Sequence record: MZ501089
Strand: one strand, 5' to 3'
DNA: 64,000 nucleotides
From: Escherichia phage KarlGJung
Position 1 is the first letter of the stretch, and the number at the start of each line of letters is the position of its first letter. Positions 3,494 to 50,425 of the stretch are shown here, one piece after another. A program made the translations under genes and the position numbers. The notes beneath the pieces are model-generated. The model was not told the DNA's origin and ran no database searches. It worked only from the letters and a program-made list of their open reading frames with translations.

Positions 3494-3954
3494 TAGTAAA
3501 GGTCCTCAGAGTAAAGTTCTTTTTCACTACCACCGCGTTCAATACGTACTTGTCCGGCGTAAGTTGCAATAATCATTGCTTCTTCACGTGTCCAGTAATT
3601 GCTATACTGATCAATAAACCCTTGGTCATCATCACAAACTTGCTGAGTAACTAATTGGGGTTTAACTACATCTAAAACTTCTGCCATATCTTTAGAATAA
3701 TGACGAGCACCTGGAATAACAAGAGTTCGTCCATCTTTTAATTTAAAACGGTTGGCGGCACAAACAATTCGTCGTTGATACTTTTGGTTTTCATCCCAGT
3801 ATGCGGTCTGCCAACAGATTTCAGGAACTTCTTTTAGAATATCTTCTTCTGTGCATTTATAACCATGCGCTTTAAATTTTTCAACAAGACTTTCTGGAGT
3901 TTCACGACATAAAGGAACATTCAGCATTTTTAAACGATTAATAAATGGGTTCAT
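3493..3954 (-). CDS. Hypothetical protein, 153 aa
   Basis: Track ORF on early strand; stop/start overlaps with neighbours. Confidence 0.5.
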
Positions 3955-4280
3955 TTAAACCATCCTTTAATACGTTGCCATAAAGTTTTCTGTTGAGCTT
4001 TGTTAACACCAATTGAACGAATAACTGGTTGAGATTCCTGAAATTCTTTATAATCAGCAAGGTAAATTTCGTAAGCTGCATCCGTAAATGAACTTATCGC
4101 TGCCATAAAATTATTGCGAATACCTACTGGAGCATCTTTACTTTCACGAATAATCATGTATTTACCAGTCTTAATCTTTACGATAGTTCCAAGATAAGCT
4201 CCATGGTACCAGATGTCCCAACCCTCTTGAGTAGGTTCTACACAACGACGAAGTTCATTGACAATTTCTAACTTGTTCAT
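3951..4280 (-). CDS. Hypothetical protein, 109 aa (immediately downstream of motA)
   Basis: Track ORF; stop overlaps next start. Confidence 0.45.
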
Positions 4281-4290
4281 TATTTATTCC

Positions 4291-5259: not shown

Positions 5260-5308
5260 TTTTTGTATCTCCGGGTTGTTTGTTTCAGTTCATTTATTTG
5301 ATAGTTGT

Positions 5309-5338
5309 ATAGTACCACAGTATGCTTTGGTTGTAAAC
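5309..5338 (-). promoter_or_regulatory. Early promoter (GTTTAC-N18-TACTAT)
   Basis: gtaaac 5333-5338, atagta 5309-5314; upstream AT-rich tract. Confidence 0.55.
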
Positions 5339-5368
5339 CGTTTTGTGAAAAAATTTTTGAAATAAAAA

Positions 5369-5390
5369 AGGGAGAGCCGAGGCTCTCCCT
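5369..5390 (-). terminator. Intrinsic terminator hairpin followed by U-run on mRNA strand
   Basis: gggagagc-cgag-gctctccc stem-loop; mRNA continues tttttatt. Confidence 0.6.
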
Positions 5391-5394
5391 AAAA

Positions 5395-5544
5395 TTACTG
5401 CATGACTGTGATAACTGTCATGATAACACGTTGAATTCCGAACGCAAGAAGACCTCCTGCTACGGCAGGAACAACACCTAAACCCGCCAGTAAAATGCCA
5501 CCAGATACTAATGCAGCGCTTGTGATACCAATGAATGGACTCAT
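5395..5544 (-). CDS. 49 aa glycine-zipper membrane peptide (below track cutoff)
   Basis: Hand-translated MSPFIGITSAALVSGGILLAGLGVVPAVAGGLLAFGIQRVIMTVITVMQ; ATG overlaps gp52 TGA (ATGA); terminator follows. Confidence 0.45.
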   Translation of the reverse strand: MSPFIGITSAALVSGGILLAGLGVVPAVAGGLLAFGIQRVIMTVITVMQ

Positions 5545-17553: not shown

Positions 17554-18054
17554 CTAGCTTACACGAACATTAATCACTGCGCTGCGAGGAACTACAGAGT
17601 ACTCTCCAGCATGAACTACATTAAGAAGTTCAACGCCATCTTCAACCCACTGGTCAGTTACCCAACCGCCAACCGGATTCGCGAATGGACGACGAATATA
17701 AACTGCCTTACACAACAAATCAGTCGGGTCTTCAATTTTTTCAACTGGTGTTACATACATAGAAACTAAATCCATATCAATATGGGATTTTTCTTGTTCT
17801 TCTTTTTCAATTTCTGTCAATAAATTGAAATCTTCTTCATAGATGATGAATGATGATACCCTTCCATAATAGTTTCTAATTTCCATGTACACTGTACCAA
17901 TGAGAATTCCGCTATTAACACTAATAACAGTAAAAGGATATCCGCCAGTTGTACCAAGAAGTTCCCAAAACTTGCTATCAGTCGTATTCGACATTGTCTG
18001 GAAATCAATTTCAGATGGTTTTTTCATTTGATACGTAGTATTAATTTTAATCAT
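17554..18054 (-). CDS. MotB paralog (shared C-terminal domain)
   Basis: 166 aa; C-terminal WVTDQWVEDGVELLNVVHAGEYSVVP matches MotB YITDQWVEDGVKLYNAVFLGTYKVIP. Confidence 0.5.
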   Translation of the reverse strand: MIKINTTYQMKKPSEIDFQTMSNTTDSKFWELLGTTGGYPFTVISVNSGILIGTVYMEIRNYYGRVSSFIIYEEDFNLLTEIEKEEQEKSHIDMDLVSMYVTPVEKIEDPTDLLCKAVYIRRPFANPVGGWVTDQWVEDGVELLNVVHAGEYSVVPRSAVINVRVS

Positions 18055-26295: not shown

Positions 26296-26814
26296 TTAAT
26301 AACCTCGGTCTTGACGAACGAAATTTTCAGCATTTTTCAGATAATAAAGTTTAAAGATTTCTTCTGCTGTAAGACCAAGACCTTGAAACATGTTCAGAAC
26401 AAAATGGAGAATATCAATCATTTCGAATTTGATTTCTAACTGGTCCTGTGGAGACAAATCAGTAATCAGAGTTTCACGACGTTCACCATGCTGAGCTTTC
26501 CACGGCTTCCATACAGCAGATGCATCTTTTTCGCCATTGCTCATACCACCAAGAGAAGTCAGAAGTTCGCGGAATTCATCATCAATATAATCTTTCTGAT
26601 TACGCAGCCAATCAACAACTTCACCTGCAGTAGCCAAATCATCAGGATGACGGTTATATTCAGGTTTATCTTTAGCTAAACGAATCTGCAGAGATTTCTG
26701 CATGTCAAGCATTACCTGCAGCGGGTCTTTTTCATCACCGAGAATATCCCAATATTCATTTTGAGCTTTATCAGCGCCTTCGATCAGTTGACTACATTCG
26801 TTAAAGTAAGCCAT
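26296..26814 (-). CDS. 56: dCTP pyrophosphatase gp56
   Basis: Track ORF 26296..26829 (TTG) trimmed to ATG: MAYFNECSQLIEGADKAQNEYWDILGDEKDPLQVMLDMQ... Confidence 0.85.
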   Translation of the reverse strand: MAYFNECSQLIEGADKAQNEYWDILGDEKDPLQVMLDMQKSLQIRLAKDKPEYNRHPDDLATAGEVVDWLRNQKDYIDDEFRELLTSLGGMSNGEKDASAVWKPWKAQHGERRETLITDLSPQDQLEIKFEMIDILHFVLNMFQGLGLTAEEIFKLYYLKNAENFVRQDRGY

Positions 26815-26874
26815 TATTTTTCCTTTCAATTCATTAATAAGTTAAATAATTATATCATTTGAGTATGTAAGCAA

Positions 26875-27663
<789 letters not shown>

Positions 27664-27667
27664 TCAT

Positions 27668-27862
27668 TTATTGCAGCAAAAAAAATGAATTATACAATTC
27701 ATCATCATATGTATTTGATAGTAATACTAACACGTTTTGCGATTTAGCATATTCATTAAACCTCGCCTGAATAGTTGGATTATCAGTAAATGATTCTCTT
27801 TTTGTCCATTTATTACGTGGATAATATCCGCATGGTAAAAAATCTAATATCATCCTCAGCAA
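27668..27862 (-). CDS. Hypothetical protein, about 61-64 aa (start uncertain)
   Basis: Track ORF begins at TTG; ATG three codons in; early promoter upstream. Confidence 0.3.
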   Translation of the reverse strand: MLRMILDFLPCGYYPRNKWTKRESFTDNPTIQARFNEYAKSQNVLVLLSNTYDDELYNSFFLLQ

Positions 27863-27880
27863 TTTATTTTATAATACCAT

Positions 27881-27910
27881 AACAAGCTGAAAAAGTAAAC
27901 AAATTTATGA
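27881..27910 (-). promoter_or_regulatory. Early promoter (GTTTAC-N18-TATTAT)
   Basis: gtaaac 27905-27910, ataata 27881-27886. Confidence 0.5.
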
Positions 27911-27944
27911 AATTTGTGATAAATATTAATTTAAAGGAGGACAT

Positions 27945-28145
27945 ATGGTACAAAAATTAATGGCACTTGTTAATGCCATAAAAGGTAATAAAAAACGTAT
28001 AGCTTTTACTATTTCTGCTATGGTAGGAATTTTACTCTGGAATTTTGTTTTATCGCCAATTGCTATTGCTCACGGCGTTAATATTCCAGTAATTACTCTT
28101 GATACATTCGTAGATTTAGCATTTGCTTTGGTTGGGTTAATTTAA
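27945..28145 (+). CDS. Plus-strand small membrane protein, 66 aa
   Basis: Strong SD AAAGGAGG 4 nt before ATG; two hydrophobic segments; stop shares TTAA with the gene 61 stop. Confidence 0.45.
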   Translation: MVQKLMALVNAIKGNKKRIAFTISAMVGILLWNFVLSPIAIAHGVNIPVITLDTFVDLAFALVGLI

Positions 28146-29170
28146 ATCTTGGCATATTTAGATAGCCTCATTTTAGCCATCAACCCTTGGGCAATATTAT
28201 TTTTCATATATTCCATAATTTGTTCAGGGGTTGCACCTTCCTTTCTAATCATATCATTAACATCTTTTGATTTCCAGGGAGATTTATCCCAAAACATAAC
28301 CCTTTCTCCTGCATCAACTAATTTAGTCATTCGCTTAATTGTATCAGGGTGACGAGGTTCATTATCTAAGACCCACACTCGTCTATCTTTAAATGGAACA
28401 ATTTCTAGGTCTAATTGACCACCCGTAATAGCTATACCATTTTCAATAAAAAGTGAATCTATAGGTCCTTCTAGAACATATACATCGCCATCTTTAACTC
28501 GTTCGACTCCATAGATTTTTGTTGCCTCAGGATAAGCTTTGATGGTGATATATTTTTGAGGAGCATCTTTCTTTAATGCACGTCCTTGAAAAGACTCAGC
28601 TTTTCCATTAGCATTATAAATTGGAATAACAAGACGAGGCTCAGAAATTTCCTTTTTGTATGTTCCCGGTGCTATGCTATTAACTAATTTAGGCCATTCG
28701 GTTGTAAACCAAAGATATTTCCATTTATCCTTTGGAATACAACGAGCTTTTACATATTTTATAATTGGATGGTCTTCCGCCAGTTTATCTAATCTAACGC
28801 ATGACGGAAGAGATTTAATTATTTTCTTCTCAGGTTGTTTAGGAAGTTCTTTAGGTTTTTCTACTGGACGACTTTTACCTTTTTCTTTTCTTATTTCAAA
28901 GATATACTCACGATATAAATCAGGTTCAAACTCCTTTAAATATATTCCGATTGGTGCATGATAGTTACAGTTATAACAATGAATATTTCCTTCATTATTA
29001 TCGCCATAATACCATCCACGAGCTTTATTCTGGTCGGTTTTTGAATCTCCACAAACAGGGCATCTAAACCGTAATTTAAAAGTTGAACTATTATTTACTT
29101 GTGTGAATTTAGGTAAATGAGCTAATGCACGGTATGCAAACTCATTATCAATCCAAGGTATTGATGACAT
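28142..29170 (-). CDS. 61: DNA primase gp61
   Basis: 342 aa MSSIPWIDNEFAYRALAHLPKFTQVNNSSTFKLRFRCPVCGDSKTDQNKARGWYY... (zinc ribbon plus Toprim). Confidence 0.9.
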   Translation of the reverse strand: MSSIPWIDNEFAYRALAHLPKFTQVNNSSTFKLRFRCPVCGDSKTDQNKARGWYYGDNNEGNIHCYNCNYHAPIGIYLKEFEPDLYREYIFEIRKEKGKSRPVEKPKELPKQPEKKIIKSLPSCVRLDKLAEDHPIIKYVKARCIPKDKWKYLWFTTEWPKLVNSIAPGTYKKEISEPRLVIPIYNANGKAESFQGRALKKDAPQKYITIKAYPEATKIYGVERVKDGDVYVLEGPIDSLFIENGIAITGGQLDLEIVPFKDRRVWVLDNEPRHPDTIKRMTKLVDAGERVMFWDKSPWKSKDVNDMIRKEGATPEQIMEYMKNNIAQGLMAKMRLSKYAKI

Positions 29171-35172: not shown

Positions 35173-35325
35173 TTAAACCTCAATTGATACATTCATATTT
35201 AACTTGTAACAGTAATAAACCCCAGCCTAAAATAATAGTTGGAATCATAAGAGGAACCGTTACACTATAGTATATACTTATTATAATCATCAAGATTAAA
35301 AGCAACACTGCTATAATTTTGCTTT

Positions 35326-36212: not shown

Positions 36213-36246
36213 TTTATTCTCCAAATCCGTATTAGTTGATAGTTGT

Positions 36247-36276
36247 ATAGTACCATGGAAGAACAGTCTTGTAAAC
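36247..36276 (-). promoter_or_regulatory. Early promoter (GTTTAC-N18-TACTAT)
   Basis: gtaaac 36271-36276, atagta 36247-36252. Confidence 0.55.
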
Positions 36277-36362
36277 AGTTTTGTGAAAATTTTTTAGGGA
36301 ATTCTAAAGGTCCAGAATCATCTGTTTTTCATAAGTATAGATTTATATTACTTGTATGAAAA

Positions 36363-36380
36363 AGGGACCCGGAGGTCCCT
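36363..36380 (-). terminator. Hairpin/terminator downstream of gene 43
   Basis: agggacc-cgga-ggtccct; mRNA continues ttttcat. Confidence 0.55.
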
Positions 36381-36392
36381 AGATTTATTCTA

Positions 36393-50267: not shown

Positions 50268-50297
50268 ATCAATTCCTCAAAGGTAATTCATATGTTA

Positions 50298-50327
50298 ATA
50301 ATACCACGGTTTGAACTTATTGTAAAC
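50298..50327 (-). promoter_or_regulatory. Early promoter (GTTTAC-N18-TATTAT)
   Basis: gtaaac 50322-50327, ataata 50298-50303. Confidence 0.55.
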
Positions 50328-50408
50328 AACTTTGTGAAAAATATTTTAGGGAATGACAAGAAGGGAACGATAGCTTAGAATGGTAATATACAGAATGTAA
50401 GAAAGAAA

Positions 50409-50421
50409 GGCCCAGAGGGCC
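50409..50421 (-). other. GC hairpin just downstream of nrdH
   Basis: ggccc-aga-gggcc. Confidence 0.4.
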
Positions 50422-50425
50422 CGCC

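Follow-up and report, generated by a model that had tools for sequence, protein, structure and literature searches.

A conserved small gene convergent with the primase gene of T-even phages, with the signals of a late gene and a predicted inner-membrane product

The stretch of DNA analysed here (the window; 64,000 nucleotides of Escherichia phage KarlGJung, sequence record MZ501089) is a segment of a T-even (Tequatrovirus) genome. Between positions 2199 and 63939, only five stretches of at least 150 nt are not covered by a minus-strand open reading frame (ORF) of 50 aa or more. One of these stretches, the 279 nt from 27863 to 28141, is filled by a small ORF on the plus strand, and no minus-strand ORF of at least 30 aa lies over it except for the 4-nt overlap of its stop codon with that of gene 61, the gene of the DNA primase. 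A first-pass annotation, made from the letters of the sequence, had singled out this 66-aa plus-strand ORF within a minus-strand region, and both its coordinates and the strand bias are borne out. The other stretches of at least 150 nt devoid of a minus-strand ORF of at least 50 aa in the same interval are located at 5260-5540, 35173-35325, 36225-36392 and 50268-50425. The features of the locus are summarized in Table 1.

Table 1. Genes and sequence signals around the small plus-strand ORF (positions in the window)
Feature	Positions	Strand	Remark
Gene 56, dCTPase	26296-26829	minus	local gene order
dam, DNA adenine methyltransferase	26875-27654	minus	variable upstream neighbour
64-aa remnant ORF of the 186-aa phrog_8706 gene	27668-27862	minus	indel hot spot immediately upstream of the putative small-ORF promoter
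Late-promoter-like box GATAAATA	27918-27925	plus	core ATAAATA at 27919-27925; differs from the T4 late promoter TATAAATA by G at -13
Shine-Dalgarno sequence AAAGGAGG	27933-27940	plus	4-nt spacer ACAT, then ATG
Small 66-aa ORF	27945-28145 (stop codon included)	plus	phrog_2024 member; equivalent to RB69ORF029w / RB32ORF030w
Terminator-like hairpin	27950-27979	minus	inside codons 2-12 of the small ORF
TTAA common to both convergent stops	28142-28145		ORF TAA 28143-28145; gene 61 TAA on the minus strand, 28144-28142
Gene 61, DNA primase	28142-29170	minus	convergent neighbour of the small ORF
Stem-loop in the gene 61 3' end	28181-28233	plus	36-88 nt beyond the small-ORF stop; pyrimidine-rich tail

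The small ORF starts with an ATG at 27945 and its 66-aa product reads MVQKLMALVNAIKGNKKRIAFTISAMVGILLWNFVLSPIAIAHGVNIPVITLDTFVDLAFALVGLI. About 19-20 nt separate the end of the late-promoter-like box from this ATG, and the base preceding the core is a G, which gives a match of 7/8 to the T4 late promoter. Here, three further observations of the first-pass annotation were reproduced, namely the Shine-Dalgarno (SD) sequence at a spacing of 4 nt, the ATAAATA element with its seven matching positions out of eight, and the TTAA through which the stops of the ORF and of gene 61 overlap by four bases.

Judged by its substitution pattern, the small ORF is a genuine protein-coding gene of the T-even lineage. 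By tblastn, 692 phage records were found to contain the ORF in intact form; the amino-acid identities span about 48% to 100%, with about 500 records at 90% or more and about 190 below 60%. The comparison at the nucleotide level comprised thirteen loci. The dN/dS ratio of the ORF is ~0.1, and pairwise values mostly range from 0.07 to 0.3 inside each genus. Among ten Tequatrovirus sequences, the segregating sites are distributed over the three codon positions as 7/2/13, and 14 synonymous stand beside 8 nonsynonymous changes, with 77% of the possible changes being nonsynonymous (P=7e-5). Four Mosigvirus sequences gave a similar picture (sites by codon position 6/0/15; 15 synonymous and 6 nonsynonymous changes; P=8e-6). 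Between Tequatrovirus and Mosigvirus the differences by codon position amount to 29/12/43, so that third positions dominate.

To describe the distribution, the region downstream of the primase gene was sampled across T4-like phages. The small ORF is present at the equivalent site in six genera, Tequatro-, Mosig-, Dhaka-, Gapriver-, Jiaoda- and Marfavirus, and two divergent metagenomic contigs (L014 and L016) also carry it beside the primase gene. It consistently lies on the strand opposite to primase and next to the primase 3' end. The ORF is absent at this site in Roskildevirus Cronus, Pseudotevenvirus PF-CE2, the unclassified Klebsiella phage PhiK2046 and Krischvirus SSG23, and in these four lineages gene 56 comes directly after primase. 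The first-pass annotation had made its reading dependent on conservation across T-even genomes, and this conservation, at one and the same site in six genera, is what was observed.

Twelve sequences from the six genera and the metagenomic contigs align nearly without gaps at 18-68% identity to the protein of the window. Invariant in this alignment are M1, W32, N33, P38, G44 and P48, and position 53 is always acidic. A profile built from the alignment retrieved 116 protein clusters, all of 63-69 aa and all from T4-like phages, with Escherichia, Shigella, Klebsiella, Enterobacter and Yersinia as hosts and with nearly every entry named 'hypothetical protein'. An earlier HMMER profile search against 1.84 billion representative proteins yielded only 6 clusters, all belonging to the same family.

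The flank of the small ORF that faces away from primase is variable and consists of dam, phrog_8706, homing endonucleases or gene 56. In phage Lutter it contains dam and the 186-aa phrog_8706 gene, in the window dam and the 64-aa remnant, and in T4 dam alone. A homing endonuclease occupies this place in fPS-2, Dhakavirus and Jiaodavirus, and gene 56 alone is found in ime09 and Mosigvirus, where dam is absent. The remnant in the window matches only positions 122-179 of the 186-aa phrog_8706 protein, the gene of which is intact in Lutter (L006 1555-2115) and deleted in T4. Judging by these comparisons, the interval between dam or gene 56 and the putative promoter of the small ORF is an indel hot spot. 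In all flank arrangements compared, the ORF and its upstream signals remain with the primase end. The end-points of the phrog_8706 deletion in T4 are located at the short repeats gcgat / gtgat. In RB69 (L019 4155-5001) the genes sp, imm and imm.1 adjoin each other a few genes from the small ORF, and imm of T4 is located elsewhere; by this adjacency, envelope-related genes cluster near primase in Mosigvirus.

The 4-nt overlap between the stops of the ORF and of gene 61 recurs in Mosig-, Dhaka- and Marfavirus. Elsewhere the spacing is a 9-nt gap (L014), a 14-nt overlap (L016), an 18-nt gap (Jiaodavirus) or a 200-nt gap (Gaprivervirus). The sharing of TTAA by both stops was therefore rejected as a conserved functional feature, since the spacing ranges from a 14-nt overlap to a 200-nt gap.

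With regard to family membership, residues 2-66 of the small protein match positions 1-65 of the 65 positions of the phrog_2024 profile (E = 5.4e-31). The ORF is placed as members of this family are, that is, convergent with gene 61 and downstream of gene 56, dam or a homing endonuclease. Together with RB69ORF029w and RB32ORF030w it forms one family, covering the full profile at the same position between gene 56 and gene 61 and on the same strand. No difference between phrog_2024 and the small ORF was noted; the function of the family is unassigned and neither a Pfam nor an NCBIfam model exists for it. Pfam gave no match at E <= 10, and no relative was found in NCBIfam or by a profile search of the PDB. 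PADLOC assigned 0 families to the 12 family members, and Foldseek against BFVD returned only the family itself and weak 63-aa matches from T4-like phages. Furthermore, hhalign comparisons with holin T and with Spackle (Sp), both taken from the window, gave probabilities of 0.1% and 0.5%, respectively. One UniRef entry names a 63-aa variant 'Holin', which is a label only.

The box upstream of the ORF belongs to a rare motif. In the 64-kb window, ATAAATA occurs 6 times on both strands together, and 39.9 +/- 6.0 copies are expected from dinucleotide-preserving shuffles, which corresponds to an about 7-fold depletion and thus to a strong avoidance of the late-promoter core in this mostly early region. 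Three of the copies precede holin t (1517, plus), soc (26258, minus) and gene 49 (53850, minus). The remaining ones are located before the small ORF (27919, plus), antisense inside t (1663, minus) and at 4281 (minus). In T4, holin t, soc and gene 49 count among the classic genes that are late or boosted late. In the window, where the three were identified by Pfam (gene 49 as the endonuclease VII gene), the motif stands 18-30 nt upstream of each. The holin t unit, AATAAATA-N7-AAAAGGAGG-N4-ATG, and that of the small ORF, GATAAATA-N7-AAAGGAGG-N4-ATG, have a nearly identical layout. At 4274-4288 on the minus strand, AATAAATA abuts the ATG of a 109-aa ORF without a Pfam match (3954-4280). This box cannot serve the 109-aa ORF in the usual way, since a start 6 nt downstream falls inside the ORF.

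Across the phages compared, the box has been kept 14-26 nt before the ATG in 9 of the 10 lineages despite diverged flanking bases. It reads TATAAATA in Dhaka- and Marfavirus, AATAAATA in Tequatrovirus of the ime09 type, in Mosigvirus and in L016, CATAAATA in Gapriver- and Jiaodavirus, and GATAAATA in T4 and the window. L014 is the sole deviating lineage, with TATTAATA in place of ATAAATA. A GGAG or AGGAGG element precedes the ORF in all lineages compared. Late genes are preceded at a short distance by a box of the TATAAATA type that spans about -13 to -6, and such a box is present here with 7/8 positions. The G at -13, found in the window and in T4, is a rarer variant than T or A. Of 50 T4 late promoter sites, 32 are perfect, nine have an A at -13 and the others show other single deviations (PMC2988020); in comparative work the -13 position was found to be poorly conserved (PMC1524935).

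The strand itself points in the same direction. Early and middle transcripts of T4 are all of one polarity and only late transcripts run either way (PMC2988020). As the small ORF is encoded on the other strand, early and middle transcription do not reach it, and matches resembling sigma-70 promoters on the ORF strand do not exceed chance. The late expression suggested by the first-pass annotation is hence supported by three independent lines, which are the avoidance of ATAAATA, the conservation of the box and the strand. Transcription from the ATAAATA box late in infection appears strongly supported on these grounds, and the start is predicted around 27929-27932, ~6 nt downstream of the box. 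Taken together with the features of the product described below, the small ORF is probably a gp55-dependent late gene that encodes an inner-membrane protein.

The product is predicted to contain one strong transmembrane (TM) segment, residues 19-42 (nt 27999-28070), with a KD19 value of 2.0 for residues 19-37. Five K/R are present among the first 18 residues, including a basic cluster K13-R18, and residues 2-13 form an amphipathic helix. According to the positive-inside rule, the N-terminus is predicted to be cytoplasmic. The C-terminal residues 45-66 are moderately hydrophobic, contain the only acidic residues of the protein, D53 and D57, and by prediction would not insert by themselves. The AF2 model displays helices at residues 2-13, 16-42 and 52-62 (mean pLDDT 75). 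The first-pass annotation had described a small membrane protein with two hydrophobic segments. Hydropathy and the AF2 model support the membrane protein with a strong N-in TM helix; of the two segments, the first was confirmed and the second is marginal. With this marginal C-terminal segment, both an N-in/C-out topology, in which the C-terminal helix is at the periplasmic face, and a helical hairpin, in which it is folded back, would fit the prediction.

The invariant residues W32-N33, P38, G44 and P48 are located in the outer half of the TM helix or just beyond it. Helix-helix association is often driven by an Asn within the membrane. Since W32-N33 and P38 are invariant within the membrane, we infer that the protein may function in oligomeric form or through binding to a larger membrane protein. 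A dual start as in lambda S (M1...K4...M6) was considered and rejected, as M6 is conserved only in Tequatrovirus and has no SD of its own. Only one soluble tryptic peptide of usable length, LMALVNAIK, is released from the small protein, besides a hydrophobic peptide of 48 residues.

Several known systems can be compared. With the T4 holin T (gene t, PF11031) and small class II/III holins the small ORF has in common late expression, here predicted, a very short leader and a strong SD, and like holin T it would give an inner-membrane product with a cytoplasmic N-terminus. In contrast, holin T comprises 218 aa and the small protein only 66 aa, without a periplasmic domain or a charged C-terminal tail. 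Holins are small proteins with one or more TM domains, which applies here (residues 19-42); a highly charged, hydrophilic C-terminal domain is lacking, as the last 24 residues are hydrophobic with D53 and D57 as the only charges, and Pfam, PHROG and hhalign place the protein in no described holin family. A classification as holin was therefore not adopted. Spackle (sp, gene 61.3) and Imm resemble the small protein in genomic neighbourhood, small size and envelope location, the latter being predicted for the small protein. However, both are encoded by early minus-strand genes, and Sp is a secreted periplasmic protein. MgrB and AcrZ are small bitopic membrane regulators of bacteria. The similarity to them, which is based on general knowledge, concerns the size, the single TM helix and the conserved polar and aromatic intramembrane residues that suggest a larger partner. 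They differ in that there is no homology and that the small protein is phage-encoded and, as predicted, late.

Two RNA hairpins are found close to or within the ORF. On the minus strand, ATGGCATTAACAAGTGCCAT followed by TAATTTTTGT (27979-27950) forms an 8-bp stem with a T tract and a fold z-score of -2.1. In the record of fPS-2 a terminator is annotated at the same place, and Mosigvirus ST0 has no equivalent. This hairpin may be the terminator of the gene 61 transcript in Tequatrovirus.

The plus-strand stem-loop falls within the part of gene 61 that encodes IAQGL...ATPEQ. It is found, with a sequence that varies between lineages, in Tequatro-, Mosig- and Gaprivervirus as well as L016 (z = -2.3 to -4.3), is weak or absent in Marfa-, Dhaka- and Jiaodavirus and in L014, and is absent in all four lineages without the small ORF. 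Its folding as plus-strand RNA is favoured over that as minus-strand RNA by 4-7 kcal/mol in Tequatrovirus and Gaprivervirus; in Mosigvirus and L016 both strands fold equally well. Tentatively, it could represent the 3' end or the terminator of the late transcript. It is not regarded as a proven terminator, as its tail is pyrimidine-rich and not a U run, and this reading is further weakened because only some lineages show the strand asymmetry and because the comparison is confounded by coding constraints. The 18-nt gap between ORF and primase in Jiaodavirus is taken up by a GC-rich hairpin, GGGGCtttgGCCCC (L023 2224-2241), and in L014 the hairpin CTAGGGcttgtCCCTAG with a T-rich run extends across the ORF stop (4190-4225). 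Both look like terminators between convergent genes. Hypothetically, the plus-strand stem-loop and the hairpins at the ORF stop would be alternative ways to end the late transcript.

From these data the following model can be proposed. The small ORF would be a self-contained late transcription unit, arranged tail-to-tail with the primase gene. After the onset of replication, RNA polymerase modified by gp55/gp33/gp45 would initiate at the [T/A/G/C]ATAAATA box (27918-27925) and produce an mRNA with a leader of only ~13 nt and a strong SD. The 66-aa product would enter the inner membrane, where the basic N-terminus with its five K/R stays cytoplasmic, one TM helix (residues 19-42) spans the bilayer and the conserved HG-x-N-x-P...LDTxVD tail is placed at or beyond the periplasmic face. 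Here, W32-N33 and P38 would mediate helix-helix association, either in a homo-oligomer or, more likely, in a modulator of a larger membrane protein. The process acted on would be the envelope late in infection, with lysis timing or envelope integrity as best guess. Our best guess for the small protein is thus a modulator that acts through its TM helix on a late process of the envelope or of lysis; since the family has no characterised relative, the process affected is only a guess. Other roles, such as head assembly at the membrane, anti-defence or host-membrane takeover, are possible.

Exclusion and lysis timing had been named as examples of a role in the first-pass annotation. A function in lysis timing would be in line with the expression signals, as the architecture of promoter and SD is near-identical to that of holin t in the window. 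The protein would be a holin-like protein, an antiholin or a modulator of holin T, co-expressed with t and acting on T in the membrane. The small protein, late and bitopic as predicted, with a conserved polar residue in its TM helix, also speaks for such a role, and the UniRef label mentioned above, although a label only, points the same way. On the other hand, no holin family of Pfam or PHROG was matched and a similarity to holin T is lacking. Where holins typically have a charged C-terminal domain, the small protein ends in a hydrophobic stretch of net charge -2, and the M1/M6 pair, reminiscent of a dual start, is not kept beyond Tequatrovirus. Furthermore, t, rI, rIII, e and the spanin genes are all unlinked to the ORF, and searches for r genes reportedly missed this locus. 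The extensive search of Burch et al. 2011 for T4 rapid-lysis genes (cited in PMC6832632) is reported to have yielded only rI, rII, rIII, rIV (=sp) and rV (=t) and to have been near-saturating. If so, a null allele of the small ORF would probably not show a strong r phenotype. Overall, a lysis-timing factor is considered rather unlikely.

A role in the protection of the envelope late in infection, or in superinfection exclusion, has to be rated as unlikely. Here, the protein would complement the early Imm and Sp while secondary phage adsorb. The ORF is located three to four genes from sp and, in RB69, near sp, imm and imm.1; Spackle is annotated within the flank in four of the ORF-bearing lineages (L014, L016, Jiaoda- and Marfavirus), and the conserved motif lies near the predicted periplasmic face. 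However, no similarity to Sp exists and the known exclusion functions are early. The same low rating applies to the reading of the small protein as an unrecognised player in the late envelope physiology of T-even phages, for instance as a membrane partner of holin T or of RI/RIII lysis inhibition, or as a late envelope protector that sets the collapse of lysis inhibition; we regard this reading as improbable.

It is also conceivable that the late promoter mainly serves to make antisense RNA against the primase 3' end, or to clear or terminate converging transcription, and that the peptide is incidental. Due to the overlapping stops, any late transcript would enter gene 61 antisense, and the plus-strand hairpin in the gene 61 3' end recurs among the ORF-bearing lineages and is missing in those without the ORF. 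T4 also has sites at which both strands are transcribed, each at a different time (PMC2988020). Nevertheless, the purifying selection on the amino acids in two genera, the residues invariant across six genera and the conserved strong SD argue for the protein. In addition, the overlap is not conserved, since the hairpin of Jiaodavirus and L014 is at or before the primase stop and the ORF of Gaprivervirus is 200 nt away. An RNA function is very unlikely as the main role. Finally, a spurious ORF picked up by gene callers, in a gap that is merely the 3' UTR and terminator of gene 61 plus dam promoters, would be in line with the short length, the terminator-like minus-strand hairpin inside the ORF and the lack of annotation in the reference records of T4 and T2, but it is already contradicted by the substitution pattern (dN/dS ~0.1), by a frame intact in 692 records at about 48% to 100% identity, by the conserved SD and late box and by homologs down to 18-27% identity at the same site, and can be dismissed as extremely improbable.

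The family of the small ORF is already catalogued in databases with hundreds of relatives, and its function is unassigned. As RB69ORF029w, RB32ORF030w or phrog_2024 the gene is annotated as hypothetical protein in most relatives. The first-pass annotation had called it uncharacterised, which is correct for the function; the gene itself is annotated in relatives. In the T4 record NC_000866.4, the ORF is located at 17738-17938 (plus strand) in an unannotated gap, and the T2 record likewise lacks an annotation. No NCBI or UniProt accession for the exact T4 protein sequence was found in the collection searched, and no paper found mentions RB69ORF029w, RB32ORF030w or peptide strings of the protein. 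The literature found on T4 Ribo-seq, small proteins or transcription start sites (TSSs) contains nothing on this locus. A T4 transcriptome and proteome paper makes no mention of unannotated or antisense features (PMC9697503), and a T4 dRNA-seq study reports 150 TSSs, 22 of them antisense (10.1101/2024.04.04.588121). Studies that use the NC_000866.4 annotation, as these two do, cannot score the small ORF.

Few genomes in biology are as well annotated as that of T4, yet no gene is entered at this site in the T4 reference record. The comparative evidence says that a conserved protein, predicted to be late and membrane-inserted, is made in T4, T2, T6, RB69 and related lineages. Entering the ORF into the T4 annotation would correct the record in a small but definite way. 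The find itself is a modest one, since the family is already catalogued as hypothetical and nothing falls outside the known kinds of phage genes. If the small protein is indeed an unrecognised player of the late envelope, it would have been missed for decades, because the T4 annotation omits the gene and LMALVNAIK is the only usable peptide.
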